Source: a virus
Direction: 5' to 3' (one strand)
Length of the DNA: 30,223 nt
Virus record (IMG/VR): IMGVR_UViG_3300031949_000004
Coordinates: 1-30,223 of that record
Each line of letters begins with the position of its first letter. The stretch's first letter is position 1. The position numbers and the translations under genes are program-made. The notes beneath the pieces are model-generated. The model worked only from the letters and a program-made list of their open reading frames with translations. It was not told the DNA's origin and made no database searches. Below, one piece after another: positions 2,781-30,223 of this stretch.

Positions 2781-2899
2781 TGGGTGTTCGGCGTGTGTTC
2801 GGGTCCAAGGAGAACGTTCTCTTGTATCGCTATGGCGTTGTCGGATCTGAGGATGTTGGTGGTCGGAGGAGGAGTCGTCGGGGTGCAAAGGAGGCCGTT

Positions 2900-3307: not shown

Positions 3308-3316
3308 GGGTGTGAC

Positions 3317-4452: not shown

Positions 4453-4481
4453 TAGACTTGGCCCAGATGAGGTGGTGACGC

Positions 4482-5375: not shown

Positions 5376-5379
5376 AAGG

Positions 5380-6288: not shown

Positions 6289-6295
6289 TCGAAGA

Positions 6296-6721: not shown

Positions 6722-7050
6722 GGGAGCCTCCAGACCTTGCTCTGGTTGTCGTAGAGCACACGATTCTTGACCGATAGCCAGGCGAGCTTGTGGCGGATCA
6801 CCGAACCGCTGTCGTTACGGCTTTCGCCCCAGGCGACAATGTTATCGATGGTCATGGCGCCGCCCTGTGCGGTGATATGCTCGAACAGGGCGCGAGTTTC
6901 GACTGGCCAGACGGGGTCGTTCATGTCCGGGATGTTGGTGGTGAACAGCTTGATGAAGCGGCGGGAGGGCACGAGGCACGGCAAGGTGTTGCAGGTCATG
7001 AATGTGATCTGCCAGGGCGCGAAGCATTGCCCGGCACCACCAGAGTACAT
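6718..7050 (-). CDS. Hypothetical protein
   Basis: 110-aa ORF in the leftward block with a weak RBS. Confidence 0.35.
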   Translation of the reverse strand: MYSGGAGQCFAPWQITFMTCNTLPCLVPSRRFIKLFTTNIPDMNDPVWPVETRALFEHITAQGGAMTIDNIVAWGESRNDSGSVIRHKLAWLSVKNRVLYDNQSKVWRLP

Positions 7051-9585: not shown

Positions 9586-10086
9586 ATGTATGGCAGAGAA
9601 TTGAGTGAACGTTATTTGGCCTTTCGTCGACGATCTTATGCCCAGGCCACCTACTACGAGGAATTGCAAGAAGCGGTGCAGCGGGAGCCCACACCTTGGA
9701 AGATTCCTCCACTGAAGGAGATGCAGATCATCGAACGTTATCGTGCGATGTTTCCTGACGCTTTCATGGATCGTCGCAAGGAGATGCCTCGGCCGGCCGG
9801 GGAATTCGGGATCGAGGTTTTCGCCGGTTGGCTTCCGATCGTGGAGGCGATGCTGGAAAAGCTGGCGGGCTTCGGGGACATCGTCATCGTGCAGATCAAG
9901 GAGAAGTTCGGAGCGTTGACCGTCTACGTGGGGGATCCGCAGAGCCGGGACGAGGTGCAAGCGATCCTTCGAGACGCGCGTCAGCTTTCGGTTGCCACTT
10001 GCGAGTTCTGTGGGCAACCAGGAAAAAATCAGCGCATGCGCGACGGCTGGTTCAAGACGATGTGCGACTCTTGCCGGGCGAAGTAG
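9586..10086 (+). CDS. Hypothetical protein with a C-terminal Zn ribbon (CEFCGQPG...CDSCRA)
   Basis: 166-aa ORF divergent from 9225-9533 across an AT-rich 52-bp spacer containing TATGCT. No SD, so it may be leaderless. Confidence 0.35.
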   Translation: MYGRELSERYLAFRRRSYAQATYYEELQEAVQREPTPWKIPPLKEMQIIERYRAMFPDAFMDRRKEMPRPAGEFGIEVFAGWLPIVEAMLEKLAGFGDIVIVQIKEKFGALTVYVGDPQSRDEVQAILRDARQLSVATCEFCGQPGKNQRMRDGWFKTMCDSCRAK

Positions 10087-11243
10087 GAACGAAGTCGACG
10101 GGTGAAATCTCGCGCAGTGGGGATACGGGCGAGGGTGAGGTGGTGCGAGCTTGTGGATCGAGGGGCACGATCTCGTCGGGTTCTGGATCGGGCAAGATGA
10201 ATTCCTGCACGGGAAGGTGGTGGTTCTCGTCCACGATTCCGTCGATGCGTTGGCGGCAGCCTTGGCAGAATTCGACGATGTCCATGGCCAGGCGCTTGGT
10301 CTTGGGTGGAAGGTTGCTGATCTTGATGGCCAGGATGAGCTTCTGGGTGCGTTCGAGTCCGGATACCGTCCAGAGCTTTTCGTTTTTCCGGTTGGGTGGT
10401 TTCTTGAGTCGCGCAAGCGCCTCGTCGGCCGTGATGCGGTGCTGGCCGAACCACAGGCGCAGGTTCTTGATGGCCTCGATGGGATTCATGGCCGAGAGCT
10501 TGACGAGGATTTCGAGCGGGATCTTGTCGCCGCGTTGCCAGGATTGCAGTACCTCGGGTGGGAGGCGGTCGATACAACCGAGCAGCTTTTCGATGTGCCC
10601 GAGGGAGTGTCCGGACTTGCGCGAGAACTCGTCGGGCTTGACGCCGAAGCGGTCGCGCATCATCCGGGCAGCGTGGGCCAGCTCGTAGGTCGAGAGTTTC
10701 TCGCGAGCCGTGTTCTCGATGATGTTGATCCAGTATTCCTGTGCCTCGGGGGTGTCGAGCGGCAGGACGATGGCGGGGATCGTTCTCCAGCCGAGATGTC
10801 GCACGGCCAGAGTGCGGCGGAAGCCGGCGCGGATGTGGAAATATTCGGGTTTGGGGGCGGTGACCACCACGATCGGTACCTTCAGTCCTTCGAGATTGAT
10901 GCTGTTCGTGAGTTCGGTGAGGCTCACGGGATCCATGGTGAGCCTGGAGTTCTTGAAGGTCGGATCGTCGAGGATCCGGTCGAGTTCGATGAGACGCGTC
11001 TCGGAGAAGTTGGCGGCGGTGCAGTTTTCGCCCTGGGGACCGGTGAGCGCGGTGAGGACATCGATGCGATGCTGGGCGGCGCGCTTGTCGAGCGCGGCCT
11101 GGGCACGGGCCGCCAAGGGGTTGTAGGGCCTGTCGTTGGAGGTCGCTTGGGTTTCGGTGTCGAGAGGCGGAGTATCGCCGGCAAGAATGGTTTTCAGCCG
11201 TTCGAGCAGGGCGGTGGGGTTGTCTGGGGTGATGTAAGGCAAG
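10052..11243 (-). CDS. ParB N-terminal (ParB/Srx) domain protein, putative DNA-binding protein or nuclease
   Basis: KVPIVVVTAPKPEYFHIRAGFRRTLAVRHLGWRTIPAIVLP is a ParB-N signature. The ORF is open to 11359, but that would overlap the SNF2 gene by 88 nt. TTG at 11243 with GGAGG upstream is the more plausible start. Confidence 0.65.
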
Positions 11244-11270
11244 GGGTGTTGCCTCCGGGCTGGTGGATCT

Positions 11271-12974
11271 TCACACGGCCAGCTTGAGCTGTCGAGGCGG
11301 TTGGGATTTGGGTTTGAGATCTTGTTCCGGGTGTCGGTTGAGCGCCTTGTCCAAGACATCTTGCTTGGCGATGATTCGTTTGGACATGTTCACGTCGATG
11401 GTTCCGTCAAGGACGAGGTGGATGATGTGGACCATCTTCTTCTGTCCGATCCTTGCCAGGCGATCTTCCGCCTGGCTGACGATGGAGGGGTTCCAGTCGA
11501 CTTCGACCAGGATAGCGGTCGAAGCGGCGAACAGGTTGAAGCCCACGGCCGTTTTGAGCCCGCCGATGAAGATCCGTGCGTCGCCTTCCTGGAACCGCTT
11601 GACGGCCAGCTCGCGGTCGGGCTTCTTGGTTTCGCCGTGTAGGCAAACCGCCTGGTTACCGTAGTGCTGGGCGAGCTGAGCGAGCACGTCCTGGTGGTGG
11701 GCGAAGATCACCAACTTGTCGATGCCGGAGGCCAGCACATCATCTATATAGGCGATGCATGCGGGTAGCTTGGCCAGGGCGGTCTTGTGCCGGAACTCGC
11801 TCATCTCGGTGAAGGCGACGCCGATGAAGTCGTCGAGGGCCTGGATGGCTGCCTTGTATTCCTCGTTGGTCTTGGCGGCTTCCAGGGCGCCCAGGCGGGC
11901 CTCGTAGTCGGCATCGTAGAGCTGCTTCCATCGCTGGAAGTCGGGATCTTGTGACCAGTCGATCTCGGAGTCACCGAGTACGACGAGCTGGCGGCGTTTG
12001 GGCGGTAGCTCGGTGAGTACGTCGGCACGGCGTCTGCGGATCATGAAGCTCGCGCGCAGGCGTTGTTGCAATTCGCCGAGGTGCGTCCCCCCCGTGTCGA
12101 TGGTTCGACCGCCCTGGCGATGTAGGCCGCAGTAGCGGTGTGCGAATTCGATCCAGTTGCCGAATTTGGCCGGGCAGATGGCGGCGGCGATGGTCCAGAT
12201 CTCCTTGGGGTAGTTCTCGATGGGTGTGCCGGACAAAAACAGGCATCGATGCGACCTTTGCATGAGGCCGTTCTCGCCGAGCACGGCCTGGGTGCGCTGG
12301 GCATTCGGGGTCTTGAGCGCGTGTGCCTCGTCGCAGATGAGGACGTCCCAGATGCGTGCCAGTGACTGTGTGAGGGGCGAATTCCTGATGAGCTTTTCGT
12401 AGTTCACGATGACGAGCAGGTTGTCGCGATTGGGGACGACTGACTGCCCAGATTTTGGGATCACAATTTCACGAGGGTTCACCAACCATTTCGTTGCTTC
12501 GTTTCGCCAGTTGAATGCCAGTGTGTCAGGTGCTACAACGAGAACGTTACCAGGTTTGAGATAGTTGATGAATCCTAATGCCTGTATCGTTTTACCGACA
12601 CCCATCTCGTCACCAAGAAGTGTGTCTTTGTGATCTCGTATGTATGCAACCCCGGCTTTTTGAAACGGCAGGTAGCTCAAATCTTCAGGACAAGGGATCA
12701 CGATGTTGGCATCTACGGCTCGCGATCGAGCAAGCTTGTCGAGGTGAACCTTCATGACCTTGAGCGCCTCGGCGTTGCAGTAGGATCTAAGACGTGTGGC
12801 CGACTCGACCTTGTTCGACCAGAACCGGTTCCCTATGTTCGCTCGACAGGCTTTGCATTTGCCGTCGCGCTTGCATAACGTTGGTTCGTGTAGCTCGAAG
12901 CCGGCTTTGCGGAGGGCGCCTCGCTCGTCGGGCTTGTCTACAACGAATACACCTTTCCAGTAGGCGATGATCAT
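11271..12974 (-). CDS. SNF2-family ATPase/helicase (second copy) with an N-terminal Cys-containing domain
   Basis: 567 aa. LLGDEMGVGKTIQALGF (motif I), VLICDEAHALKT (DEAH), and the helicase-C region HGETKKPDRELAVKRFQEGDARIFIGGLKTAVGFNLFAASTAILVEVDWNPSIVSQAEDRLARIGQ. N-terminus contains CKRDGKCKAC. Confidence 0.85.
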   Translation of the reverse strand: MIIAYWKGVFVVDKPDERGALRKAGFELHEPTLCKRDGKCKACRANIGNRFWSNKVESATRLRSYCNAEALKVMKVHLDKLARSRAVDANIVIPCPEDLSYLPFQKAGVAYIRDHKDTLLGDEMGVGKTIQALGFINYLKPGNVLVVAPDTLAFNWRNEATKWLVNPREIVIPKSGQSVVPNRDNLLVIVNYEKLIRNSPLTQSLARIWDVLICDEAHALKTPNAQRTQAVLGENGLMQRSHRCLFLSGTPIENYPKEIWTIAAAICPAKFGNWIEFAHRYCGLHRQGGRTIDTGGTHLGELQQRLRASFMIRRRRADVLTELPPKRRQLVVLGDSEIDWSQDPDFQRWKQLYDADYEARLGALEAAKTNEEYKAAIQALDDFIGVAFTEMSEFRHKTALAKLPACIAYIDDVLASGIDKLVIFAHHQDVLAQLAQHYGNQAVCLHGETKKPDRELAVKRFQEGDARIFIGGLKTAVGFNLFAASTAILVEVDWNPSIVSQAEDRLARIGQKKMVHIIHLVLDGTIDVNMSKRIIAKQDVLDKALNRHPEQDLKPKSQPPRQLKLAV

Positions 12975-12986
12975 GTGGGGGAGGTC

Positions 12987-13484
12987 TCAGGAAGACGGTT
13001 GGGGTTGGCCAATGCGGTCGCTTACCCAGTCGTTTACTACAAGATCATCAACCATACAGTTCGAGCACACGGATTGGTTGAAGGGGTACAAGAATCGGAA
13101 TCCCTCTGCCCGTGTATGATGACACACGATGCAGGTTTCTTCGGGTAACCCCTTGGTACGAGATGCCTTAGCGGTGTGGACGATGTGGTCATTTACCACA
13201 AGATTGTCAGCCATACAATTTGAGCATACGGATTGGTTGAATGGGTACAAGAACCGGAAGCCTTCCGCGCGCGTATGATGACAGACGATGCAGGTTTCTC
13301 CAGGTTGTCCCTTGGCACGAGAATCGATTCTTTGGATTAGTGCGCGGGTCGCCCTGGCAGCACCATGTACTTTGAGTGTATACATGAACACAACCGCGAC
13401 GACAAAGCCATAGGCAAACCCAACCCACCAGTTGGGGCAAAGGTCACTGAGATGTTTCCAGGTGTCGTGTTGCCAGTCATTCAT
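12987..13484 (-). CDS. Membrane-anchored protein with two tandem CxxCHH...CxxC zinc-ribbon modules
   Basis: N-terminal hydrophobic helix WWVGFAYGFVVAVVFMYTL. The roughly 51-aa module ETCIVCHHTRAEGFRFLYPFNQSVCSNCM occurs twice. At the DNA level the repeat period is about 153 bp. Confidence 0.5.
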   Translation of the reverse strand: MNDWQHDTWKHLSDLCPNWWVGFAYGFVVAVVFMYTLKVHGAARATRALIQRIDSRAKGQPGETCIVCHHTRAEGFRFLYPFNQSVCSNCMADNLVVNDHIVHTAKASRTKGLPEETCIVCHHTRAEGFRFLYPFNQSVCSNCMVDDLVVNDWVSDRIGQPQPSS

Positions 13485-15552: not shown

Positions 15553-17352
15553 ATGATCAGTCGTCGTCCCCCCGGCAGATCGCCATCTGACCGGTATCCT
15601 TCGATGGGGCGATCGGGGGCCGGGCGGTTTTCGCCCGGTCGTTCGACGCCCGACGATCAAACCGAGCAAGCCGGTGTCGAGCGTCGTTTGTCCAAGACAC
15701 CGATCTACGAGGCTGGTGATCCGTTTTCCGGTACCGTGTCGCGCGGTTCTCCACCTAAGATGTTGCGCGATCAGCTCTACGATCGCATGTGTGATTGGCG
15801 AGGTCATACGATCGCGGAGATGGAACTTTGGTTGCCGGGCAACAAATGGGTCGAGGCGATGATTGATCTCATTACGTTCGGGTTTGCTTTCGATCGTGAG
15901 GTTTTACCCGACGGGACGAAGACCCTCTGCTTGCGCAAGCGCGAGCTTTACGAGCACAGGCAGCAGGTGGTGGATATTCTTTCGGGTGTCACGCTGCCAG
16001 ATCGTATCGCGATGTCTTCGGATCCCATGTTGTCGATACCCGAGGTCAAGGCGCCTCGTCAGGGTGTCGTGTTTCAGGAAAGCTCCATCCTCGTGGATGA
16101 AGGGCAATGGACGCCGCCTCCCGATACGGAGAAGATGGTGCTCGATGTGAACGGTGATATTGTGCTGTCGGTTCTAGATCTGGTCACCGACACCATTGGT
16201 ATCCTGGCTCGCAAGGGCGCGGGCAAGACCTATCTGGCCATGGTGATCGCGGAGGAGTTCCTGGCGAGCACGTTCGATATTCCCTTTGTGGTCCTGGATC
16301 CGACGGGTGTGTGGTGGGGGCTCCTGTCTGATGCGGAGGGTAAGCCTACGACGACCCGACTGGCGGTCTTTGGTGGTGCTCATGGTCATTATCTGCTCAG
16401 CTCCAAGGATGGGGCGATCATGGCCAAGACGGTCGTTGCCTGTCGCCCTTTGCCGTTTGTCTTCGACCTATCGGCGTTTCCCCGCGAGGAGCAGCATCGG
16501 TTTTGCGCCGATTTCTCCGCCGAGCTGTACCTGGCGAACAAGGAGCCGTTGCACATCTTCATCGACGAGGCGGACGGATTCGCGCCGCAACGGCTCGATG
16601 GGAAGTCCTCGATGCACCAGAAGCGGTCGCTGGTCGAGATTGATTGCCTCGTGCGGCGAGGTCGGGTCCATGGGCTCGGGGTCACCCTGATCACGCAGCG
16701 TCCTGCTGTGATATCGAAGAACGTGATCTCCCAGGTGGGGGCCATGTTCTTCCTGGAGACGGGGGCGCCACACGATCTGCGAGCCATTGATGATTGGTTG
16801 ATTGATCGGATCGGGGACGACGTGCGCCGGCAGTGTCGTGAGGAGTTGCCGGTGCTCGGTAAGGGTCAAACCTTTTACATGCGTGGTGGGGAGCACTATC
16901 GGTTTTGTAAGTTCACGGTGCGTCTGAAGAAGACTGTAGATTCGTCCTATACACCACGTATCGGTGAGAAACGTCCAAAAGCCGAAACCTACCAACTGAC
17001 CGAAGAAGATCGGGCGATGCTTGACGAGGCCATGGAAGCCGTTCGCTCTGGAGTGTTTGTTTCCGGCGAAGGTGGGGTGGCGACCGCTGCCCTGAAAGTG
17101 GTGCATGAGCTTGCCACTGCGAGGTTAACCTCCACAAGTGATGGCGTTGCGGATGATGTTGGAGACAGCGTTTCGCCTGATGACAGTGTTGAAGACAGTG
17201 GTTCATCCGATGTCGTTCAAGATCTAGATGAGGGTGATACGACTGCGGGCAGCGATAATCCCGATCCTGATACGGATGATGACGATCACGTTCAGGATGT
17301 TCGTGGTGTGCCGGTAGACGATCAGCAGGACGACTGTTCCGAGGATGATTGA
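15553..17352 (+). CDS. HerA/FtsK-superfamily P-loop ATPase with a disordered N-terminus and an acidic C-terminal tail
   Basis: Walker A ILARKGAGKTYLAMV. LDPTGVWWG (HerA-like DPxGEY-type motif). Walker B HIFIDEADGF. VTLITQRPAVISKNVISQ (the TQRP motif of FtsK/HerA). C-terminal D/E-rich tail. Confidence 0.75.
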   Translation: MISRRPPGRSPSDRYPSMGRSGAGRFSPGRSTPDDQTEQAGVERRLSKTPIYEAGDPFSGTVSRGSPPKMLRDQLYDRMCDWRGHTIAEMELWLPGNKWVEAMIDLITFGFAFDREVLPDGTKTLCLRKRELYEHRQQVVDILSGVTLPDRIAMSSDPMLSIPEVKAPRQGVVFQESSILVDEGQWTPPPDTEKMVLDVNGDIVLSVLDLVTDTIGILARKGAGKTYLAMVIAEEFLASTFDIPFVVLDPTGVWWGLLSDAEGKPTTTRLAVFGGAHGHYLLSSKDGAIMAKTVVACRPLPFVFDLSAFPREEQHRFCADFSAELYLANKEPLHIFIDEADGFAPQRLDGKSSMHQKRSLVEIDCLVRRGRVHGLGVTLITQRPAVISKNVISQVGAMFFLETGAPHDLRAIDDWLIDRIGDDVRRQCREELPVLGKGQTFYMRGGEHYRFCKFTVRLKKTVDSSYTPRIGEKRPKAETYQLTEEDRAMLDEAMEAVRSGVFVSGEGGVATAALKVVHELATARLTSTSDGVADDVGDSVSPDDSVEDSGSSDVVQDLDEGDTTAGSDNPDPDTDDDDHVQDVRGVPVDDQQDDCSEDD

Positions 17353-18464
17353 TGGCCAAACGCAAGACCAAGCATAAGATCGTCAAGGTCAAGGCGTATT
17401 GGAATTATACGGCGGCCGGTCGTCGTTATCGTGTTCCTGCTCACAAGAGAACCATCACTGTACGGGTTGTGCCCGTTCTGCCTGCTGCAGTCAAGAAGCT
17501 GCCAGCGCGCAGGGCTCCAGAAAAGAAACCCGTTAAGATTGCTCCTGTCAAGAAGCCTTTGCCCAGGAAACTAAGGGCAGAGGTTGAGAAACCTGTCAAG
17601 AAGCCTGTCAAGAAGCCGACCAAGAAGATCTTTGTCAAGAAGCCGGCTCGGAAGCTCCCAGTCAAGAAGCCTGCCCGAAAGCTTCCCGCCAAGAAGCCTG
17701 CCCGAAAGCTTCCCGCCAAGAAGCCGGTCAGAAAGCTTCCGGTCAAGAAGCCGGCTCGAAAGCTTCCAGCCAAGAAGCCTGTTCCAAAGAAGCCGCTAGG
17801 TCGAAAGCTTCCCCGCCGAAAGCTTCCAGCCAGGAAGCCCATCAGGAAGCCTGTCAAGAAGGCATTACCACGCCGAAAGAAGATCAAGCGGAAGTATCCA
17901 CCCTTCATGCGGCAGGCGTTGGTTGCCGAGAACTTGATCCAAGAGAAGCTGTTTCGCATGTTGGATCACCTCGAAATCACGACCGAGGGGTTGCAGATGA
18001 CCGTGCGTTCGTTCGTTAACGCGGATGCGACTGTGGATGGTGAGCTAAGGATTTCGAACTTGCCTGACGAATGGCGAACCATCGAGGGGCTCCCCGATGT
18101 GATTGCCGCGCTTTCGGTGGCCATCGACGCCATGGGTGCATTCAGCGTCGAGTCCGCCATGGGAGGAAGGTTCTGGGTGTCGTTCGGCCTGCGCTTTGGC
18201 CCGAAGAACCAGGCGGAGATCGAAGAGATGGCCAAGTTCTACAAACGGTTTCGAGGGCTCTTCCAGGTCGGCGCGCACCACGCGATGGCGCACGATACGG
18301 GCGCCATCAAGGCGAATGCTCTGGCGGTGAGGATGTTCATCGAGCGCGTCTGGGCGACGCGTGATTTGCCTCCTGTGCAGATTTTGGTGCGTTTCGTGTG
18401 GACGCCCACGAAGAAGAATCCAGGTCGCGATGCTAGCGAAGTGGGCAGCAAGGATCTGAAATAG
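17352..18464 (+). CDS. Lysine-rich tandem-repeat protein (histone H1 / AlgP-like KKPA repeats) with a C-terminal globular domain
   Basis: ATG at 17352 overlaps the ATPase stop (TGATG). A TTG at 17349 is also possible. About 10 repeats of KKPARKLPA / KKPVRKLPV, then a roughly 190-aa non-repetitive C-terminus. Confidence 0.7.
   Translation: MAKRKTKHKIVKVKAYWNYTAAGRRYRVPAHKRTITVRVVPVLPAAVKKLPARRAPEKKPVKIAPVKKPLPRKLRAEVEKPVKKPVKKPTKKIFVKKPARKLPVKKPARKLPAKKPARKLPAKKPVRKLPVKKPARKLPAKKPVPKKPLGRKLPRRKLPARKPIRKPVKKALPRRKKIKRKYPPFMRQALVAENLIQEKLFRMLDHLEITTEGLQMTVRSFVNADATVDGELRISNLPDEWRTIEGLPDVIAALSVAIDAMGAFSVESAMGGRFWVSFGLRFGPKNQAEIEEMAKFYKRFRGLFQVGAHHAMAHDTGAIKANALAVRMFIERVWATRDLPPVQILVRFVWTPTKKNPGRDASEVGSKDLK
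17590..17870 (+). repeat. 27-bp tandem coding repeats (aagaagcctgcccgaaagcttcccgcc and variants)
   Basis: Exact adjacent copies at 17680-17706 and 17707-17733. Degenerate copies lie on both flanks. The repeats are in-frame and coding, not CRISPR-like. Confidence 0.8.
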
Positions 18465-18474
18465 GAGGACTGAG

Positions 18475-19113
18475 ATGACCATCAAGGAATTCATGCAGAA
18501 GGTGCATGCGACGGCCGTGGCCAAGGGTTGGTGGGAGAAAGATCAGGAGACCGGTCGGCTTAAGGCCCGGAACACCGCCGAGATGCTCGCGCTCATGCAT
18601 AGCGAGGTCGCGGAGGCTCTGGAGATCTATCGGATCCCGAACAAGAAGCTGTCGGATCTGTGGACTTCCAATGGTGGTGTAGCCACGTCGAATCCGCTGA
18701 CACAGGTCGAAGTGGAAGCGCATTGCCAGGTGATGGATCCTGATTTTGCGGGCAAGCCCGAGGGTTTCATGGTCGAGATCGGAGACCTGATGATCCGGAT
18801 TGCCGATACCTGTGAGGCCATGTCGATTCCCCTTGACGTGGTCCTATGCAACACGGACATCTCGCGGCTTAGTTGGGGTCGGAACGTGCTCGATGTTGTT
18901 GTGTCAGAATTGCTTCAGCACATGAATGTGTGCCTGGTGTATGCGTTCAACGCCATCCGGAACGGGCGTGCGGCGGCCGAGTCGTTCGCGGAGATCTTTC
19001 ACACCTGTGCGCACATCGCCACGCTGGCAGGGGTGTCCTTGGAGTACGTGCTGGTCTGGAAGATGAGGTACAACGAGACCCGGTCCTACCGGCACGGCAA
19101 CAAGAAGTGCTAG
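18475..19113 (+). CDS. MazG-like nucleoside triphosphate pyrophosphohydrolase
   Basis: 212 aa. RBS aggagg. Contains LALMHSEVAEALEIYR (EExxE metal-binding motif) and later acidic helices. Confidence 0.65.
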   Translation: MTIKEFMQKVHATAVAKGWWEKDQETGRLKARNTAEMLALMHSEVAEALEIYRIPNKKLSDLWTSNGGVATSNPLTQVEVEAHCQVMDPDFAGKPEGFMVEIGDLMIRIADTCEAMSIPLDVVLCNTDISRLSWGRNVLDVVVSELLQHMNVCLVYAFNAIRNGRAAAESFAEIFHTCAHIATLAGVSLEYVLVWKMRYNETRSYRHGNKKC

Positions 19114-19119
19114 GTCATC

Positions 19120-19350
19120 ATGGCTCGGATGTCGAGTTATGCCCTGGGCGACGATGCTGTGGATGGTGGTTTTCACGTGGCCTGGGTCAAGAAGACGAAG
19201 GTTGGCTTGAAGCTTGTCGATGAGCGGTATGGGAAGAGGTGGAAGAGTCGTGATGCTCTGCTCGGGGCTATGCAGTTGTGGATGTCGGTTCACGCTTTGT
19301 TTGTGAGGGTGGATGGGGATGTGGCAATCTTCGAGCCGAAGGACTACTAG
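19120..19350 (+). CDS. Hypothetical small protein
   Basis: 76-aa ORF with no clear RBS. Confidence 0.3.
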   Translation: MARMSSYALGDDAVDGGFHVAWVKKTKVGLKLVDERYGKRWKSRDALLGAMQLWMSVHALFVRVDGDVAIFEPKDY

Positions 19351-19369
19351 GTGGAGCAATGAGTTGTAG

Positions 19370-19702
19370 TTGGGACACGGCGCTAACCATGAAATGGTGC
19401 TCATGCAGTTTTTGGTTGCTCATGCGAATTCGATAGGCGATTTTCTTCGCGATATCGAGGCTATCGCACATCATTGCGTAGAACTGAAGGTTGGTTTCGT
19501 TCATTTGCCTGTGGAGTTCTTAATCACACACAGCAGGCATCGTCTTCGTCCGATTGATGAGTATGGATGCTTCGACACACCTTGTTCGCGGACGTTTTGG
19601 TGTGAGAGGTGTCAGAAGACAGTGGTTTGTGAAGATCGCGAGCATTCAAACACTCGTTGTCATTACCATTACGTCAACAACATTTCACATCGGTCAGAGT
19701 AG
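19370..19702 (+). CDS. Hypothetical Cys/His-rich small protein (lower GC)
   Basis: 110-aa ORF. C-terminus reads CFDTPCSRTFWCERCQKTVVCEDREHSNTRCHYHY. Locally AT-richer. Confidence 0.3.
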   Translation: MGHGANHEMVLMQFLVAHANSIGDFLRDIEAIAHHCVELKVGFVHLPVEFLITHSRHRLRPIDEYGCFDTPCSRTFWCERCQKTVVCEDREHSNTRCHYHYVNNISHRSE

Positions 19703-19705
19703 TTT

Positions 19706-21817
19706 ATGGCTGAATTTGGTCCTATCACTACCGAACGCCAGTTGAGGAACATCGGTGTGCTCGACCTGGAATGGGTGCCCGGTGAGGTGTTACCCATGCC
19801 CGAGAGCACTATGCTCGAAATTGACGGGATCCGGGCACCGCTCGTCATTAACCTGCCGCCCGTTAAGACGCGAACGGCTCCTTTGCAGCTTCGTTTGGCT
19901 GGTTACTATGATCAGCAGCCGGAGTGCGAGGACGAGGAAGAGCCGGTGATGGTGGAGCGGTATGAGGTCTTCAAGAGTATTGCGGAGCTGGTCGAGTTCA
20001 TGTTCGTGCGCGAGCACCGGGGCATGTGGTTCTTTGCTCATGCGGGCGGGCTCTTCGACATGGAGTTCGTGCTCGACGAGCTACTTAACCAGATCAAGGA
20101 GTCCTTGGCGGCCAAGCGTCAGCGTTCACGGACCGTTTATGGTCCTGATGGGCAAAAGCAGGAGGAGACGATCACGGCTACGGGATCGGAGTCCGATGCC
20201 CCCATGTGGACGATCAAGGCGGCGTTCTCGGGGTCATCGGCGATCATCATCCATGTCAGCAAAGGCAAGAACACCTGGCATTGTGTCGATTCGTATTGGT
20301 TGTTTCGGGACAAGCTCTCGAAGATCGGTGAAAGCATAGGTATCAAGAAGCTCGACGAGGAGAAACGTCGCACGCCCGAGGAGACTCGGAAATACTACGC
20401 CGAGACTCCGCTTTCCACGTTAATTCCTTACAACAAGGTGGATTGCGAGATTTTGTGGAAGGCCATCGCAGCCTTCGAGAAGGAGGTGTTGGGTTTAGGC
20501 GGCCAGCTCCAGCAGACCATCGCCTCGACGGCCATGAACTTGTTCCGGCGTGCCTATCTCAAGCGGACGATCCACACCTCGGAGATCTTGAATCAGATCG
20601 CCGTGAAGAGTTATTTCGCCTCGCGGGTCGAGGTCTTTCAGCGCCATGCCGAGGACTTCTTCATCTACGACATCAACTCGTCGTTTCCGTATTCGATGAC
20701 TTTCCCGTTGCCCGCTGATCTGATCGAGATGGGTACGACCATCCCCGAGGATGATGACGATTCGTGCATCTACTTGGCGGACGCCACGGTCGAGGTGCCC
20801 GAGATGGCGATTCCGCCTTTGCCGTTCCGGACCCAGGAGGATAGTCGCGTGTTCTTCCCGACCGGGCGGTGGCGGTCGTGGTTCACGTCGACCGATTTGC
20901 GGTTGGCGTTCCGTGAGGGTTGCACGATCCATAAGATCCACGAGTGCTACCGGTTCGAGCCGTTCGAGGATTTCGGCAACTATGCTCGCGAGATCTACGC
21001 CATGCGGGTGGCGGCAGACAACCCTTTTCGCAAGCTGCTTTTGAAGTACCTTCTCAATTCCTTGTATGGTAAGGCTGCGGAGTCACTGATGAAGCAGGAG
21101 ATGCTCATCAATCCTGCCGAAGAAGATCTTGACAGAACCCAGCTCCAGATGCTTCAGCCGGGGATCTGGCTGCGCGAGAAGGAAGTTGCAATTGCACACC
21201 GACACGTTGTCGTTTCGTCTGTTATCACAGCATTGTCTCGTCGACATTTGTATGACCATGCTAAAGCTTGCGAAGAACAGAAGAAACCAATATTGTATTG
21301 TGACACGGATAGTGTAGCAACAAAGGCTACGTTGTCGTGTTCAAAGGAGCTTGGCGCCCTGAAGCGTGAGAAGGAAATGGATTGGGCCGAGTTTGTTGCT
21401 CCAAAGATTTATCGTGGTGAGGGTGTCGAGCTAAAGGATGATGGTGGTCGTAAGGCTGTGAAGCTGGCTAAGGCTAAGGGGTTCTCGCTCGGCAAGTTTG
21501 ATAGTCCCATTGACGCCCTGGGTCGTATCATCGATGGGGAGCAGGTGGGCGTCCAGTCCATGGTGCGCATGCGTGAGCTTTATCGGTCGACCACGGAAGA
21601 GCACGCGGAGAGTGCTCCCTATGAGAAGCTCGTGATCAAGGCGCTCACGCAGCGGATGCTCTCGAAGCGATTTTTCTATCCTGATGGTCATACGCGGGCC
21701 TGGACGACCGAGGAGATCTTGTCAGGTGATTTCCAAAGTCAAGGATTCGATTTCGGCGACGACTTCATGAAACAGCTTGACACTACAACGCGAGCCATGC
21801 TGGAGGCGGCGGTATGA
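19706..21817 (+). CDS. Family B DNA polymerase with an N-terminal 3'-5' proofreading exonuclease (compact, probably protein-primed type)
   Basis: Exo I: VLDLEW (about nt 19761). Exo II: FAHAGGLFDMEF. Exo III: YNKVDCEIL. Motif A: DINSSFPYSM (about nt 20669). Motif B: KYLLNSLYGK (about nt 21046). Motif C: YCDTDSV (about nt 21295). KxY: PKIYRG. At 703 aa it is too short for typical RNA-primed PolBs. Confidence 0.85.
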   Translation: MAEFGPITTERQLRNIGVLDLEWVPGEVLPMPESTMLEIDGIRAPLVINLPPVKTRTAPLQLRLAGYYDQQPECEDEEEPVMVERYEVFKSIAELVEFMFVREHRGMWFFAHAGGLFDMEFVLDELLNQIKESLAAKRQRSRTVYGPDGQKQEETITATGSESDAPMWTIKAAFSGSSAIIIHVSKGKNTWHCVDSYWLFRDKLSKIGESIGIKKLDEEKRRTPEETRKYYAETPLSTLIPYNKVDCEILWKAIAAFEKEVLGLGGQLQQTIASTAMNLFRRAYLKRTIHTSEILNQIAVKSYFASRVEVFQRHAEDFFIYDINSSFPYSMTFPLPADLIEMGTTIPEDDDDSCIYLADATVEVPEMAIPPLPFRTQEDSRVFFPTGRWRSWFTSTDLRLAFREGCTIHKIHECYRFEPFEDFGNYAREIYAMRVAADNPFRKLLLKYLLNSLYGKAAESLMKQEMLINPAEEDLDRTQLQMLQPGIWLREKEVAIAHRHVVVSSVITALSRRHLYDHAKACEEQKKPILYCDTDSVATKATLSCSKELGALKREKEMDWAEFVAPKIYRGEGVELKDDGGRKAVKLAKAKGFSLGKFDSPIDALGRIIDGEQVGVQSMVRMRELYRSTTEEHAESAPYEKLVIKALTQRMLSKRFFYPDGHTRAWTTEEILSGDFQSQGFDFGDDFMKQLDTTTRAMLEAAV

Positions 21818-22044
21818 GTGAGCGAAAGTCGTGTCGACTCGATGAGATAATGACGGCTTACGAGCGTCTCGTGATCATGCAGACGCTCGAACGGAATCGT
21901 TGGAACCGCAGCAGAGCGGCCCTGGCGTTGGGGATCTCACGACGAAGGCTCCAGTACAGGATGCGCGCCTTGCATTTCGATCTGGGTGCGATCCCTCGTG
22001 ATGTGCCTGGTCGCCGGAACCGGAAGTTGGATGAGGTGAAGTAG
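21814..22044 (+). CDS. Fis-family helix-turn-helix DNA-binding protein
   Basis: LERNRWNRSRAALALGISRRRLQYRM matches the Fis/NtrC C-terminal HTH (L..N.GN.S.AA..LGISR.TLYRK). ATGA overlap with the polymerase stop. Confidence 0.65.
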   Translation: MSERKSCRLDEIMTAYERLVIMQTLERNRWNRSRAALALGISRRRLQYRMRALHFDLGAIPRDVPGRRNRKLDEVK

Positions 22045-25161: not shown

Positions 25162-25877
25162 TGGACGAGCTTCATATTCGACAGCGTGTTGACAACGGCC
25201 GAGAAACCTGGGACACGCCGACCATGCGGTGGATGCAGACCTACACGGGCAAGGTCATCGATATCGCGAACCCGAAGCCGGAAGACATCGATATCGTGGA
25301 CATCGCGCACGCGCTCGTGCGGTTGTGCCGCTACGGTGGGCATGTGGAGACCTGGTATTCGGTCGCCGGACATTCGTTGGCCATGGCCAAGTTCGCCGAG
25401 ACGCTTTCCGACCAGACCATGTTGGAGTGTCTTTTTCATGATGCCACCGAGGCGTATTTGGGCGACACGATTTCCCCCGTGCGCAAGCTACTTACCGACT
25501 GGACCAGGCGAGTGGTTTCAGAGACAGGGGATCCTGCTGGCAATGGTGTCCTGAGCATGCTGGAGCTTTTGCACGAGCGGTGGCAGAGCGCGATCTGGCA
25601 AAGGTTCGGGTTGTGCGTGATCGGGTCGACGGTGCGCACGCTCGACAAGCTGGCGCTCTTGGCCGAAGTGTCGCTGGTATTCAGGACCGTGTCGCCAGCT
25701 TTCGAGCGCAACGGTTACACGTGCGATCCGAACGAGCCGGCGCTGCACAAGATGCAGGATTTCGTTCGCCCCTATGTGCAGGAGTGCGAACCAGGTGGTT
25801 TTGGGCACAACGAGCTTGAGCTGGAGTTCGTGAATGCCTTCACTCGCTGGGAAGCCTTGCGGAGAAAGGGGCGTTGA
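25158..25877 (+). CDS. HD-domain phosphohydrolase, YfbR-like 5'-deoxynucleotidase
   Basis: SVAGHSLAMAKFAE...CLFHDATEAYLGDTISPVRK matches the H...HD...D pattern of YfbR-type HD hydrolases. Confidence 0.65.
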   Translation: MMDELHIRQRVDNGRETWDTPTMRWMQTYTGKVIDIANPKPEDIDIVDIAHALVRLCRYGGHVETWYSVAGHSLAMAKFAETLSDQTMLECLFHDATEAYLGDTISPVRKLLTDWTRRVVSETGDPAGNGVLSMLELLHERWQSAIWQRFGLCVIGSTVRTLDKLALLAEVSLVFRTVSPAFERNGYTCDPNEPALHKMQDFVRPYVQECEPGGFGHNELELEFVNAFTRWEALRRKGR

Positions 25878-25879
25878 TC

Positions 25880-26737
25880 ATGTTGTTTCGTGTGATGGAC
25901 ATCGAGACTGTTCCAGACATGAGCGTGTTCACGCCGGGGGAGCCCAAGTGGGTGCAGAAGCCCGTTTGGAAACAGCCGTCAGCTCTGGAAATTGCACATC
26001 CAGAGCTTCTGGCGGGTGTGAAGGTGCCGGAATTGGTTTGGGTGAAGGAAGATCCGTTTCCTCCAGCGCAGGCTCATCGGGTCGTGGCGATCTCGTGGTG
26101 TGATGTCGAGATGTCGGTGCCCTCGGGCAATGATTCTCGTGTGTACCGGTTCTCGGCCATGCACACGGCCGCTGCCTGGGAAACGCCCCAGGACGAGCGG
26201 AGGCTCCTTGTCGATTTCAGACGCGCGCAGCTCGGGGCGCCGGCCACCCTCGTCACCTGGAACGGTCGCACGTTCGATCTGCCGGTGCTGGCCATGCGAG
26301 CCCTGCGTCACGGCGTCCCGTGGAACTGGTATTATGATGGTCGAGGATTGCGATACCGTTACAGCGACGAAGGTCATTGCGACCTGATGGACTATTTGTC
26401 GGACTACGGGGCAACCAGGCAGATGAAGCTCGGCGATGCTTGCCGACTTATCGGGTTGCCGGGAAAGACTGATATGGATGGCAGTAAGGTCGCAGATCTT
26501 GTGTTGTCGACAGAGCCCGCAACGGTTGTCGTGGAAAACATGACTAAGGTGGCGAAGTATTGTTTGCAGGATTCCTTGCAGACAGCCTTGCTGTTCGTTC
26601 GTTCGCGGTTTCACCTGGGGTTGTTGACCCTTGCGGGCTATCGCGAGTCTATCGAGTCGTTCAAGAAGGAAATCTCGCAAGTCATAGACATCAACTGGGA
26701 GAAGCTGGACATCGCAGCGGACGTGGAGGAGGGTTGA
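25880..26737 (+). CDS. DEDDy-type (DnaQ-like; PolB-exonuclease-related) 3'-5' exonuclease
   Basis: Exo I: RVMDIETVPD. Exo II: TWNGRTFDLPVL. Exo III: YCLQDSL. ATG at 25880 follows gaaagggg. The ORF is open from TTG 25874. Confidence 0.75.
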   Translation: MLFRVMDIETVPDMSVFTPGEPKWVQKPVWKQPSALEIAHPELLAGVKVPELVWVKEDPFPPAQAHRVVAISWCDVEMSVPSGNDSRVYRFSAMHTAAAWETPQDERRLLVDFRRAQLGAPATLVTWNGRTFDLPVLAMRALRHGVPWNWYYDGRGLRYRYSDEGHCDLMDYLSDYGATRQMKLGDACRLIGLPGKTDMDGSKVADLVLSTEPATVVVENMTKVAKYCLQDSLQTALLFVRSRFHLGLLTLAGYRESIESFKKEISQVIDINWEKLDIAADVEEG

Positions 26738-28221: not shown

Positions 28222-28629
28222 ATGAACCGAAAACTGTACGTGAACAACATTCCGTGGAGTGTGACCAACAACGATTTGAAGACCTGGGTTCAGGGTCTAG
28301 GTTTCGTTGTCGACGAGGTTAAGATCATCATGAGCGCCGAGGACGGAAGGTCGCGTGGTTTCGGTTTCATTACCTTTCGGACGGAGGAGGAGGCAAGTCG
28401 CGCACTGTGGAAGCTTGACGGTGCGAGCTACCTGGGTCGGGTGTTGCACGCGGCCGTTGCGGTTCCAAAGAAACCGGGCGACAGGGCTCCAGAGTCGAGG
28501 CAACCCGAACCCGGAGAACCTGAGGTTCGTGGCGACCGTTCAGACTATGCCGGGGCCTGGTCTCCCGAGGAAGCAAAGGCTGCGAAGGGGCGACGGCATC
28601 AACGAGACGAACACGATATGGATGATTGA
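28222..28629 (+). CDS. RRM (RNA recognition motif) RNA-binding protein with a charged C-terminal tail
   Basis: RNP-2 KLYVNNIPW. RNP-1 RGFGFITF. RBS ggagaaacacac. The C-terminal 50 aa are R/E/D-rich. Confidence 0.8.
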   Translation: MNRKLYVNNIPWSVTNNDLKTWVQGLGFVVDEVKIIMSAEDGRSRGFGFITFRTEEEASRALWKLDGASYLGRVLHAAVAVPKKPGDRAPESRQPEPGEPEVRGDRSDYAGAWSPEEAKAAKGRRHQRDEHDMDD

Positions 28630-29884: not shown

Positions 29885-30082
29885 ATGTCAATCGAAGACC
29901 GAGTGATGGTGTCCTTTCACTTGAGAGAAACGAACGGCTCTCTTGCGTTGAACAGGATAACGGTTCCGTATGGGCCGTTGTGGATTTGGGAATTGGAGAT
30001 CAGAGATCAGAATGGTGAGTCCCTGGCTGGCATAGATCTGACAACCGTGGACTTGCAGAAGCTACACGATCTTATCGCCTAG
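29885..30082 (+). CDS. Hypothetical small protein whose 3' half lies in the first copy of a tandem repeat
   Basis: 65 aa. RBS gaggag. Ends ...GESLAGIDLTTVDLQKLHDLIA*. Confidence 0.4.
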   Translation: MSIEDRVMVSFHLRETNGSLALNRITVPYGPLWIWELEIRDQNGESLAGIDLTTVDLQKLHDLIA

Positions 30083-30223
30083 GCGCTCGTCATGGGGGCC
30101 GTTGTGGATTTGGCAACTAGAGATCATGGATCAGAATGGTGAGTCCCTGGCTGGCATAGATCTGACAACCGTGGACTTGCAGAAGCTACACGATCTTATC
30201 GCCAAGGCGCTCGTCATGGAACA
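29972..30223 (+). repeat. Tandem direct repeat, period 124 bp, at least 2 copies, running off the window end
   Basis: gggccgttgtggatttgg...gatctgacaaccgtggacttgcagaagctacacgatcttatcgcc[t/a]aggcgctcgtcatgg. The last roughly 95 bp of each copy are identical. A few substitutions occur at the 5' end of each copy. Confidence 0.85.

Follow-up and report, generated by a model that had tools for sequence, protein, structure and literature searches.

Polymerase gene and its neighborhood

The window, a 30,223-nt stretch of DNA from the IMG/VR virus record IMGVR_UViG_3300031949_000004 (positions 1 to 30,223), encodes a family B DNA polymerase (PolB) in which a DEDDy 3'-5' exonuclease at the N-terminus precedes a C-terminal polymerase domain (Table 1). 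A first-pass annotation, made from the sequence alone, had read Exo I, II and III, motifs A, B and C, and KxY in order in a 703-aa, exonuclease-proficient enzyme. This reading held, as the ORF was intact and all exonuclease and polymerase motifs were ordered and invariant in 24 relatives sharing 60–93% identity. Judged by its sequence, the enzyme is a complete phi29/Bam35-type PolB, with a proofreading exonuclease, fingers, KxY, TPR1, and a palm that bears the two catalytic Asp residues. The invariance of all motifs, together with inteins inside motif C in many relatives, indicates an essential catalytic role.

Table 1. Features of the polymerase locus and other window features discussed in the text
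Feature	Position	Strand	Basis
Non-coding left window edge, recurrent contig end	1..161	.	Contig ends in relatives
ParB-family partition protein	10052..11359	-	TIGR00180 81.3 bits (cut-off 58.45); PF02195
HerA/FtsK-superfamily ATPase, 599 aa	15553..17352	+	PF01935 E 9.5e-6; phrog_2666 E 2e-13
Lysine-rich protein, 371 aa	17349..18464	+	Best terminal-protein candidate, conserved C-domain
MazG-like nucleotide pyrophosphatase	18475..19113	+	phrog_3301 E 2e-26
76-aa ORF, not conserved	19120..19350	+	No family match
Lower-GC spacer, 355 nt	19351..19705	.	GC 0.465-0.49; encloses doubtful TTG ORF 19370-19702
Family B DNA polymerase, protein-primed (PF03175) type	19706..21817	+	703-aa intact ORF, ATG start
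Exo I VLDLEWV (D20, E22)	19757..19777	+	Invariant, 24 relatives
Exo II FAHAGGLFDMEF (D118)	20033..20068	+	Invariant, 24 relatives
Exo III YNKVDCEILW (Y242, D246)	20429..20458	+	Invariant, 24 relatives
Motif A YDINSSFPYSM (catalytic D322)	20666..20698	+	Invariant, 24 relatives
TPR1-like subdomain, ~residues 335-420	20708..20965	+	Alignment to Bam35 DNAP, phi29 TPR1
Motif B KYLLNSLYGK (447-456)	21044..21073	+	Invariant, 24 relatives
Probable TPR2-like insertion, ~residues 459-499, contains QPGIWLREKEVAI	21080..21202	+	HMMER, hhalign
Low synonymous-GC patch centered on motif C	21092..21487	+	GC3 0.43-0.50 vs gene 0.70
Motif C YCDTDS (531-536; D533, D535)	21296..21313	+	Invariant, 24 relatives
KxY, PKIY (566-569)	21401..21412	+	Canonical, not piPolB KTRG; invariant, 24 relatives
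Fis-type HTH protein, 76 aa	21814..22044	+	PF02954 E 1.5e-12
Stand-alone PolB-exonuclease-like 3'-5' exonuclease	25874..26737	+	PF10108 E 2.5e-38

TPR1 is a pPolB-specific insertion between motifs A and B that marks protein-primed PolBs. The corresponding subdomain of the window PolB aligned column-for-column with residues 280–380 of the Bam35 DNA polymerase (DNAP) and with phi29 TPR1, and was modeled with a pLDDT of 87–95. A TPR2-like insertion is probably present as well, since it falls opposite the phi29 TPR2 hairpin GALGFRLGEEETKD in both HMMER and hhalign alignments, in a stretch over which the structure model is unreliable (pLDDT <50). Exo I occupies residues 18–24, leaving no space for a terminal protein fused to the PolB N-terminus.

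The conserved module runs from the HerA-like ATPase through a polybasic protein and PolB to the Fis-type HTH protein, and lies 15–25 kb from a reproducible contig end. The ATPase, which matched the NCBIfam HerA model weakly and has an acidic C-terminal tail, is kept upstream of PolB in 30 loci, and its stop codon overlaps the start of the lysine-rich gene. The HTH gene follows PolB in 50 of the 85 fetched loci and, as first annotated, is translationally coupled to it, its start overlapping the PolB stop (GTATGA; ATGA overlap). The stand-alone exonuclease is another conserved member of the replication module (31 loci), and between the lysine-rich gene and PolB lies the MazG-like gene, a variable insert found in only 11 loci. 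The two small ORFs at 19120–19350 and 19370–19702, which had been offered as terminal-protein candidates, are not supported in that role, for they matched just 3 of the 85 loci searched, all carrying the sequence of the identical genome. The TTG-started second ORF is probably not a gene, because it was left uncalled by an independent gene caller on the identical Logan contig, matched those same-genome loci only (median identity 99%), and lies within the lower-GC spacer, where no significant promoter or terminator pattern was seen.

The low-GC patch at motif C

The drop in GC across motif C reported by the first-pass annotation was reproduced, with GC of 0.465–0.475 at 21100–21399 against 0.55 over the entire polB gene. 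It is a synonymous-site effect, GC3 being 0.43–0.48 in codons 485–572 compared with a mean of 0.70 for the gene. The closest relative, L020, showed 75.7% nucleotide identity in the patch versus 84–87% in the flanks. A comparable GC3 dip occurred in L020 and L087, L021 and L086 had a weaker one, and none was present in L019, L069, and L005. The center of the drop, motif C, coincides with the intein site of relatives, which lies between D533 and T534, with the junction ...LLHN/TDS in six relatives; PF14890 was found in PolB homologues of ~1,100 aa.

Assignment to the protein-primed branch

PF03175 was the sole Pfam match of the 703-aa protein (E 2.6e-30), which also matched phrog_1907 'DNA polymerase' (E 2.8e-41). 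The best solved fold for its model was phi29 DNAP (Foldseek E 2e-22, TM 0.61), with archaeal PolBs reaching only ~1e-11, and a search of PDB sequences with the family profile found phi29 DNAP alone. Profile alignment with hhalign gave a probability of 99.2% for Bam35 DNAP over 378 columns, TPR1 included, and 96.5% for phi29 DNAP. Cultured relatives were only protein-primed viruses and plasmids, namely Methanosarcina spherical virus, Bam35/GIL16-type tectiviruses, and autolykiviruses, and no clustering with T4/RB69-type PolBs was found, which favors the protein-primed view. On these sequence and fold comparisons the window PolB belongs to the protein-primed (pPolB) branch, exonuclease-proficient and of phi29/Bam35 type, as the first-pass annotation had proposed. 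Protein priming itself, as the mode of action of this enzyme, is an inference.

The DNAP of Bam35/GIL01-type tectiviruses (Betatectivirus), which is experimentally protein-primed, shares the Pfam family of the window PolB, is 28% identical to it over the alignment from Exo III to KxY, and is of similar size (735 aa against 703 aa). The local gene order also agrees: in each, the DNAP gene is preceded by that for a terminal protein (here a candidate) and immediately followed by a small HTH gene. Bam35 has a linear genome of 15 kb, bounded by inverted terminal repeats, and its terminal protein is 245 aa long, whereas the window replicon measures at least 194 kb; the upstream candidate here is unrelated in sequence to the Bam35 terminal protein and separated from PolB by 1.2 kb of extra genes, and relatives of the window PolB have inteins. 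All motifs of the phi29 (Salasmaviridae) DNAP are colinear with those of the window PolB, whose insertions are placed like TPR1 and TPR2, but identity is only ~17%; at 575 aa the phi29 enzyme is ~130 residues shorter, the excess lying partly in low-confidence exonuclease-domain loops, and inverted terminal repeats of 6 bp bound its 19-kb genome. The best cultured-virus match was the PolB of Methanosarcina spherical virus (30% identity over 60% of the query, E 1e-21); it and the other archaeal-virus pPolBs matched reside in 6–10.5 kb genomes, and the neighbor genes of the window were not found alongside them.

A candidate terminal protein

No neighbor of PolB matched a known terminal-protein family, in agreement with the earlier remark that none was obvious. 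The lysine-rich protein, then mentioned as an unconventional option, has risen to the best, though unproven, and most likely candidate. Its start is TTG 17349 instead of ATG 17352, which is the second codon. The N-terminal half (residues 1–185) is polybasic (40% K+R, 17% P, 9-aa repeats), and the C-terminal half forms a conserved alpha/beta domain of 185 aa (model pLDDT 85), an architecture of basic N-part and C-domain that every homologue has. Ser256 and Tyr298 (nt 18240–18242), the latter in a flexible basic loop, were invariant among 40 distinct sequences. In 42 of 48 loci the C-domain was encoded ahead of PolB in the same orientation, at gaps of 12 nt to 5.2 kb, and the protein is the most conserved upstream neighbor; in several loci the gene directly adjoins PolB at just 12–26 nt, which is the terminal protein-then-DNAP order of phi29 and Bam35. 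In L005 the candidate was absent within 10 kb upstream of PolB.

Searches with the candidate found no known fold or terminal-protein match. Neither sequence nor fold similarity to the phi29 and Bam35 terminal proteins was detected, similarity to the PRD1-type terminal protein was not significant, and the alpha/beta fold is unlike the helical phi29 type. The ~185-aa Tpg of Streptomyces, which is small, basic, and DNA-binding, resembles the conserved C-domain in size; no homology to Tpg/Tap was detected here.

Element size and genome ends

The identical PolB allele was found on a 194-kb contig, which also carries a gene identical to the first of the window. The PolB family, with >1,100 uncultivated clusters at 90% identity on contigs of up to 282 kb, represents widespread uncultivated soil/peat genetic elements that are 60–280 kb in size and probably linear.

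In seven of eight contigs longer than 55 kb, PolB started 15.5–24.4 kb from the upstream end, with 35–256 kb downstream, an end-proximity expected by random placement with P ~2e-4, and all 74 JGI loci from the metagenome scan had ≤26 kb upstream of PolB. An ENA contig begins 15 nt left of the window start, and contigs of four close-relative genomes from different samples have their ends 36–1,275 nt ahead of one shared first gene, the orthologous SNF2 gene, which lies 36–40 nt (Logan) or 1,014–1,275 nt (JGI) from the contig end. Positions 1–1274 of L082 are non-coding, begin with GGGGGAATTGG, and contain 45–49% G in the first 200 nt; on our reading, a terminal region of ~1.1–1.3 kb has its inner boundary at the left window edge. 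GC skew on the PolB-sense strand was +0.1 to +0.2 from the left end onward, also in most relatives, and stayed positive across the minus-strand gene block at 6.3–13.8 kb, which fits rightward-moving forks starting at that end. Taken together, the end-proximity of PolB, the recurrent contig stops, and the positive skew lead us to read this region as the left terminus of a linear genome. Counter to this reading, contig L086 (140.7 kb) runs on for 75 kb upstream of PolB. No inverted terminal repeat was seen, nor was the right end of the genome.

Proposed replication and alternatives

We regard PolB, with a probability of about 0.5, as the replicative polymerase of a large (at least 194 kb), probably linear, phage- or plasmid-like bacterial element, paired with a terminal protein and initiating at the ends. 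Replication would start at the genome ends, where PolB would pair with a terminal protein, for which the polybasic 371-aa protein is the likeliest candidate. PolB would join the first nucleotide to a side-chain hydroxyl of this partner (Tyr298 as the best guess) and copy the genome by processive strand displacement, like phi29 and Bam35. The basic N-terminal half of the candidate might tether it to DNA, and the coupled HTH protein may regulate the module or assist at the origin. The element also encodes a partition-type ParB and several helicases, which are dispensable for protein-primed phages and run counter to this mechanism.

Another course, possible but on the whole unlikely, is that an enzyme descended from protein-primed PolBs now acts as a conventional primer-dependent replicase. 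Its host would be a large plasmid or jumbo phage in which a primase gene beyond the visible 30 kb provides for primers, and the recurrent contig end would mark the boundary of a terminal repeat or a hypervariable stretch that is hard to assemble, without a protein cap. Such a replicase would suit genomes of 194–282 kb, far beyond the known pPolB range, the 75-kb passage of L086 beyond the proposed end, the phage-like neighbors (an SNF2 helicase, phrog_62, E 1e-107; a CHAP-domain protein; MazG; DUF2786), the accessory replication/repair genes near PolB in relatives (a RecD-like helicase, a UDG-like protein by a weak Pfam match, and a stand-alone exonuclease), and the missing terminal-protein homologue. 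However, primase, clamp, and clamp-loader domains were absent from the window (Pfam E ≤0.01) and from precomputed Pfam matches in the 10-kb flanks of six related loci, and TPR1 is retained and highly conserved among relatives. A circular genome or collapsed direct terminal repeat should, moreover, produce a simple assembly-graph cycle with no shared stop, and in four genomes the break nonetheless falls at the same gene. End patching is known from large linear replicons that have terminal proteins, such as the protein-capped Streptomyces Tpg/Tap replicons with an internal origin and no pPolB. By analogy, host or other polymerases might copy the bulk from an internal origin here, with pPolB and the terminal protein patching the linear ends; this precedent and the ParB, suggestive of plasmid-like maintenance, speak for an arrangement that we consider improbable, as an internal bidirectional origin predicts a G-rich leading minus strand in the left arm and the skew is the opposite, +0.13 to +0.20 on the plus strand for all 30 kb from the end, while very high enzyme conservation and intein colonization fit a main replicase.

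Primer-free de novo initiation, as by pipolin piPolBs, is very improbable. These enzymes share the broad PolB branch and the TPR1 and TPR2 insertions, and a recognizable terminal protein is lacking here, but the piPolB signatures SxTTDG and KTRG (PMC5695915) are both missing. Motif C reads YCDTDS in place of SxTTDG, the primer-terminus strand has PKIY in place of KTRG or KH-X8-KTRG, and piPolB identity, already dismissed in the first-pass annotation, was rejected. That a small pPolB element was mis-joined to unrelated DNA during assembly or binning is scarcely credible. The data are entirely metagenome assemblies and bin labels conflict (Nitrospirota versus a Conexivisphaerales archaeon), yet dozens of independent assemblies, made from different samples and with different assemblers, repeat the gene order around PolB, among them 112–282 kb contigs for which names of the contig_N form hint at long-read assembly without proving it; the 194-kb contig holds both exact genes, and GC content and skew are homogeneous throughout the window.

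pPolBs have been described as exclusive to replicons <50 kb (PMC5695915). Elements of this family lie 4–6 times above that limit, so that a conventional replisome elsewhere in the genome, of which the window shows 30 kb of at least 194 kb, is possible. The replicon is no small phi29- or tectivirus-like genome but an element of at least 194 kb, in a family that reaches 282 kb and far exceeds any replicon known with such an enzyme.

A complete polymerase of the phi29/Bam35 type

PolB, the family B DNA polymerase of this element, is a complete and conserved enzyme of the phi29/Bam35 type. It is encoded by an uninterrupted ORF with an ATG start, in which the six hallmarks of the family and KxY, read in order by the first-pass annotation, were all confirmed: Exo I (D20, E22), Exo II (D118), Exo III (Y242, D246), motif A (YDINSSFPYSM), motif B (KYLLNSLYGK), motif C (YCDTDS), and KxY (PKIY). 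Every motif with its catalytic residues was invariant in an alignment of about 24 relatives of 60–93% identity. The ATG of the downstream Fis-type HTH gene overlaps the PolB stop codon (GTATGA).

The protein-primed type suggested earlier from motif A and size is backed by Pfam, structure, and profile comparison. The single Pfam match was PF03175 (106 bits versus a cut-off of 25.8), the 'organellar and viral', protein-primed type, while the RNA-primed families PF00136 and PF03104 gave no match and no other Pfam family appeared at E ≤ 0.1. A tblastn search of 50,697 phage records returned 21 matches, in which only polymerases of protein-primed viruses resembled PolB, namely that of Methanosarcina spherical virus (30% identity, E 1e-21), an archaeal virus enzyme annotated as a protein-primed PolB (pPolB), and those of the tectiviruses Bam35, GIL16, and AP50 and of autolykiviruses; T4-like and phiKZ-like phages were absent from the 21. 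Bacillus tectiviral plasmids were the only matches among the 72,556 plasmids of PLSDB, and a profile of the PolB family matched solely phi29 DNA polymerase among all PDB sequences. An AlphaFold model of PolB (pLDDT 69, pTM 0.64) placed phi29 DNA polymerase chains at ranks 1–9 among solved structures (E 2e-22 to 1e-18, TM 0.61). The next fold group was that of archaeal PolBs (E 3.5e-12 and weaker, about 1e-11), and matches to RNA/DNA-primed PolBs lay 10 orders of magnitude below phi29. Pfam, the phage search, and the fold ranking together reject an RNA-primed PolB of the T4/RB69, E. coli Pol II, or archaeal kind, and profile, fold, and motif tests showed no T4/RB69-type kinship.

Profile comparison with the DNA polymerase of Bam35, an enzyme shown experimentally to be protein-primed, spanned 378 columns, from Exo III through TPR1 to KxY, at 99.2% probability, and comparison with the phi29 enzyme reached 96.5%. 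TPR1, situated between motifs A and B, is well conserved (VEVPEMAIPPLPFR...FFPTGRWRSWFT in PolB versus VHVPEDMYIPILPKK...IFPVGKIEGVWT in Bam35), aligns to TPR1 of both Bam35 and phi29, and is modeled at pLDDT 87–95. The insertion between motifs B and C has the right length and aligns to the TPR2 hairpin of phi29 (398–420), which makes TPR2 probable in PolB; the model is unreliable over this stretch (residues 459–499, pLDDT < 50).

Primer-independent PolBs (piPolBs) carry SxTTDG as motif C, with threonine for the first aspartate, and KTRG (KH-X8-KTRG) where others have KxY (PMC5695915). The invariant YCDTDS and PKIY of PolB reject that identity, so the earlier dismissal of a primer-independent enzyme is upheld, with both signatures missing. 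A terminal protein (TP) fused to the N-terminus is ruled out by Exo I, which already lies at residues 18–24 and leaves no room. Most relatives of 560–650 aa align their residue ~85 to residue ~165 of PolB, so in the clade of the window the exonuclease domain is longer by about 80 residues, which are of low confidence in the model.

Features of the 30,223-nt window (loci: related loci with a tblastn match, among 85)
Feature	Position	Strand	Remarks	Loci
SNF2-family helicase	162-2780		872 aa
GT10 alpha-1,3-fucosyltransferase	5380-6288		PF18025, PF00852
Second SNF2-family helicase	11271-12974		567 aa	23
ORF with C4 zinc finger match	12987-13484	-
Direct repeat in that ORF	13029-13322	-	135 nt, 84%, diverged
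HerA/FtsK-like ATPase	15553-17352		599 aa	30
Lysine-rich protein	17349-18464	+	371 aa	48
Tandem 27-nt units	17577-17850	+	six to eight units
MazG-like pyrophosphatase	18475-19113		phrog_3301	11
76-aa ORF	19120-19350			3 (same genome)
TTG-started ORF	19370-19702			3 (same genome)
PolB	19706-21817	+	703 aa
PolB residues 1-165	19706-20200	+
GC-drop patch	about 21092-21487	+	codons 485-572
Site equivalent to intein insertion	21302-21305	+	D533/T534
Fis-type HTH gene	21814-22044		76 aa; PF02954, E 1.5e-12	50
PolB-exonuclease-like protein	25874-26737		stand-alone	31
RRM_1 RNA-binding protein	28222-28629			12
Small ORF	29885-30082
Tandem duplication	29972-30219		124 nt, 95% identical

A common environmental family on large elements

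The exact PolB protein was found on a 194,181-bp contig that also encodes the exact first gene product of the window. More than 1,100 proteins, counted as clusters at 90% identity, match PolB at E ≤ 1e-5 among the at most 8,000 candidates considered, and the best 120 of these share 55–93% identity; a search without word filters gave 430 clusters at 50% identity with E ≤ 1e-30, most of them 560–650 aa long. JGI sample names suggest that they come from peat, bog, fen, wetland, and soil. No cultured relative of the family was found among the 50,697 phage records and 72,556 plasmids. GTDB genomes gave only one 6-kb MAG contig without host information, and the cluster names of relatives held one uninformative MAG label. 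Searching the IMG/VR sample with PolB itself or with an alignment of its family returned a single related contig and no viral classification. In a distant clade (loci L072–L081, 36–39% identity), neither terminal repeats nor any of the conserved neighbors were seen; one of its members, L072, carries at 200-6900 at least eight copies of the palindrome TGACTGTTAACAGTCA, which look like operator or iteron sites.

Contigs of relatives reach 282,438 bp. pPolBs have been stated to be exclusive to elements and viruses with linear genomes below 50 kb (PMC5695915), a described rather than a defining property, whose size limit the 194,181-bp contig and its longer relatives exceed. The PolB-bearing elements thus far exceed every known pPolB replicon in size. 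Neither phi29 nor terminal proteins come up in a comparative survey of jumbo phages, which lists as family B polymerases only 'classic' T4-like or divergent phiKZ-type enzymes. Our literature search, which was incomplete, found no description of the PolB family, and a prior description is possible.

A reproducible left contig end

The PolB module lies near a reproducible left contig end. Among the eight contigs longer than 55 kb that contain the PolB region, taken from the fetched metagenome loci with PolB relatives (L003–L088), seven have PolB at most 26 kb from the upstream end (P about 2e-4 under random placement), with 35–256 kb following downstream. In none of the 74 JGI loci does the sequence upstream of PolB exceed 26 kb. 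The exception, L086 (ENA ERZ25039462 contig_36229), continues for 75 kb upstream, against the other seven; it is not a fold-back palindrome, since PolB is present on it only once.

Distance of PolB from the upstream end in the eight contigs longer than 55 kb
Locus	Contig (kb)	Distance (kb)
L004	282	24.4
L019	151	22.0
L005	130	20.7
L088	129	15.5
L087	112.5	17.7
L020	67.5	21.8
L069	59.7	22.9
L086	140.7	75.2

Four related genomes of the close clade, recovered from different samples, have the 872-aa SNF2 helicase as their first gene. The distance between this gene and the contig end is 177 nt in a 47.7-kb MEGAHIT contig of the genome to which the window belongs, 40 nt in a Logan contig, 1,275 nt in a 67.5-kb JGI contig (L082), and 1,014 nt in a 71.7-kb JGI contig; the genome of L082 is also represented by a Logan contig, which stops 36 nt upstream of the gene. 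K-mer assemblers thus stop at one boundary, and other assemblers proceed about 1.1–1.2 kb further and then stop, a pattern that a terminal inverted repeat of roughly 1.1–1.2 kb would be expected to produce and that neither a circular genome nor a collapsed direct repeat should give. Within the window, no inverted or direct repeat joins its two ends. The terminal 1-1274 of L082 is non-coding, starts with GGGGGAATTGG, and has 45–49% G in its first 200 nt. PRD1 uses reiterated ends for sliding-back, and the 5'-terminal G run of L082 recalls them, with an artefact of contig-end sequencing as a possible cause; the terminal sequence had no match in the other loci or IMG/VR.

On the PolB-sense strand, each 5-kb block of the window has a GC skew of +0.13 to +0.20, also where the genes lie on the minus strand (6.3–13.8 kb). 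The skew is also positive in all relatives examined (GC content 49%–65%), at +0.1 to +0.2 in most 5-kb blocks and weakly so in some blocks of L086, L005, and L073. This fits forks moving rightward from the left end, whereas an internal bidirectional origin would give the opposite skew in the left arm. At the other edge of the window lies a tandem duplication overlapping a small ORF, and one Logan contig from this genome likewise ends at that point.

Conserved neighbors and a terminal-protein candidate

Comparison of every window gene with 85 related loci singled out the ATPase, the lysine-rich protein, the HTH gene, and the stand-alone exonuclease-like protein as frequent companions of PolB, while the MazG gene recurred in merely 11 loci. 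The two small ORFs between the MazG gene and PolB, first proposed as terminal-protein candidates, were rejected, as they matched only loci of the same genome and no protein family. The TTG-started one is probably no gene, because it is uncalled on the identical Logan contig, is matched only within the same genome, and sits in a 355-nt spacer of lower GC (46–49%).

The lysine-rich protein, put forward as an unconventional candidate, fared better as regards conservation. Its gene lies upstream of PolB on the same strand in 42 of the 48 loci with at least 1.5 kb upstream, at a distance of 12 nt to 5.2 kb (median 1.35 kb) that shrinks to 12–26 nt in L015, L040, and L062, and the arrangement equals the TP-then-polymerase order of phi29 and Bam35. 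Its homologues share one architecture, a variable N-terminal part of 143–293 aa (35–45% Lys+Arg) followed by a conserved C-terminal domain of 185 aa. Across 40 distinct sequences (34–81% identity), no hydroxyl residue other than Ser256 and Tyr298 is invariant. In a model of the C-domain (pLDDT 85, pTM 0.80), which has an alpha/beta fold, Ser256 is in a helix and Tyr298 in a flexible loop within an invariant YK..G..Q stretch. Six to eight tandem 27-nt units (a 9-aa KKPxRKLPx repeat) occur in the gene, and about 15 related short contigs end inside it, marking the repeat as a recurrent assembly breakpoint.

The candidate drew no support from similarity. The fold of the C-domain had no convincing relative in BFVD (one unnamed match at E 2.6e-4, TM 0.35), where a PRD1-type terminal protein appeared at E 0.15 only; hhalign against the Bam35 and phi29 terminal proteins gave nothing, and the PolB neighborhood matched no known terminal-protein family. 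Neither sequence nor fold resembles phi29 gp3, Bam35 gp4, or PRD1-type proteins. To our knowledge, the known terminal proteins are not homologous to one another, so that the lacking match is neither for nor against the assignment. The lysine-rich protein is the best terminal-protein candidate in the neighborhood, though a doubtful one. It may instead be a histone-like or polymerase-accessory DNA-binding protein, or the partner of the adjacent HerA-like ATPase, whose acidic tail, together with a stop codon overlapping the lysine-rich start, suggests a functional pair; this tail comprises the C-terminal ~70 aa and is very rich in Asp/Glu.

Two loci show other arrangements. In L003, a second DUF87 ATPase fused to winged-helix domains stands between the lysine-rich gene and PolB, and other glycosyltransferases lie downstream of PolB. 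In L005, the 10 kb upstream of PolB contain IS110 and DDE transposases in place of the ATPase and the lysine-rich gene.

GC drop and intein site at motif C

The GC drop noticed earlier around motif C is real and is a synonymous-site effect, with GC3 falling from 0.64–0.91 to 0.43–0.48 in a patch centered on motif C. Nucleotide identity to L020, the closest relative with DNA available, is 75.7% in the patch versus 84–87% in the flanks, and at the protein level the family keeps this stretch well conserved. L020 and L087 show a comparable dip, L021 and L086 a weaker one, and L019, L069, and L005 none. In many relatives, motif C is split between D533 and T534 (...LLHN/TDS) by an intein of about 290–400 aa (PF14890), as in the PolB genes of L034, L050, L053, L058, L062, and L064. 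We take this to be the same kind of site as that of the 'pol-c' inteins of archaeal PolBs. Most economically, the patch would be a tract of gene conversion that dates from intein homing or loss and had a putative donor of lower GC.

Other genes of the window

The remaining genes point both to phages and to plasmids. A SNF2 helicase matching phrog_62 (E 1e-107), a CHAP domain, MazG, and DUF2786 are phage-like, and a partition-type ParB scoring above the curated cut-off is plasmid-like. No capsid or terminase gene was found within the visible 30 kb, and the HerA-like ATPase weakly matches a PHROG annotated 'terminase large subunit'. Tectiviridae and PRD1-type viruses have genomes of ~15 kb, a double jelly-roll capsid, and a small packaging ATPase, to which the size of the present elements is unfitting. 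Scans for tRNAs, Rfam families, and promoters or terminators gave nothing over background.

The GT10 fucosyltransferase gene, which lies in a GC trough (0.54), recurs only in the other assembly of the same genome and is probably a recent accessory acquisition, as it was found in no related genome. One of the two SNF2-family helicases has an N-terminal DUF6011 zinc ribbon. The minus-strand ORF next to the second helicase, which contains the diverged direct repeat, weakly matches the C4 zinc finger of DNA polymerase delta. The RRM_1 protein is conserved among related loci.

Proposed replication from the ends and its alternatives

Our main reading, to which we give a probability of about 0.5, is that these genomes are linear and their replication starts at the ends by protein priming, the polybasic protein being the primer. 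The phi29/Bam35-type PolB would pair with a terminal protein in which one half, polybasic, tethers it to DNA and an alpha/beta domain bearing Tyr298 does the priming. The broader claim that a widespread, uncultivated clade of linear bacterial elements of 60–280 kb replicates from its termini in this way, with a new kind of terminal protein, falls somewhat short of even odds; its members would be jumbo phages or phage-plasmids whose bacterial hosts live in peat, soil, and wetland.

The main rival, unlikely on balance, is that PolB derives from pPolBs but extends conventional primers, the element being a jumbo phage or plasmid. A primase-helicase-clamp replisome is generally considered necessary for large genomes. 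L086 aside, the contig stops are not what a circular genome or a collapsed direct repeat should produce. Lesser alternatives concern the role of PolB or the size itself. If PolB only patched the ends of a genome replicated from an internal bidirectional origin, the skew of the left arm should be opposite to that seen, and de novo initiation by PolB is disfavored by the missing SxTTDG and KTRG. An assembly artefact behind the large size is likewise a lesser explanation.

Implications

The common view restricts protein-primed PolBs to small linear viruses, plasmids, and transposon-like elements below 50 kb. If the present elements do replicate from their termini by protein priming, they would be by far the largest protein-primed replicons, past the pPolB ceiling of roughly 50 kb, and PolB would need extreme processivity and strand displacement, making it a candidate amplification enzyme. 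The lysine-rich protein offers a concrete candidate for the terminal protein, with a priming residue predicted in it. An environmental family that is very common carries a highly conserved, intein-colonized pPolB-type enzyme, held near one probable genome end, on elements of 60–280 kb. Two outcomes are conceivable, that protein priming extends to genomes five times larger than known or that a phi29-like enzyme has been adapted to primed replication, and both bear on the relation between replicon size and replication mode.
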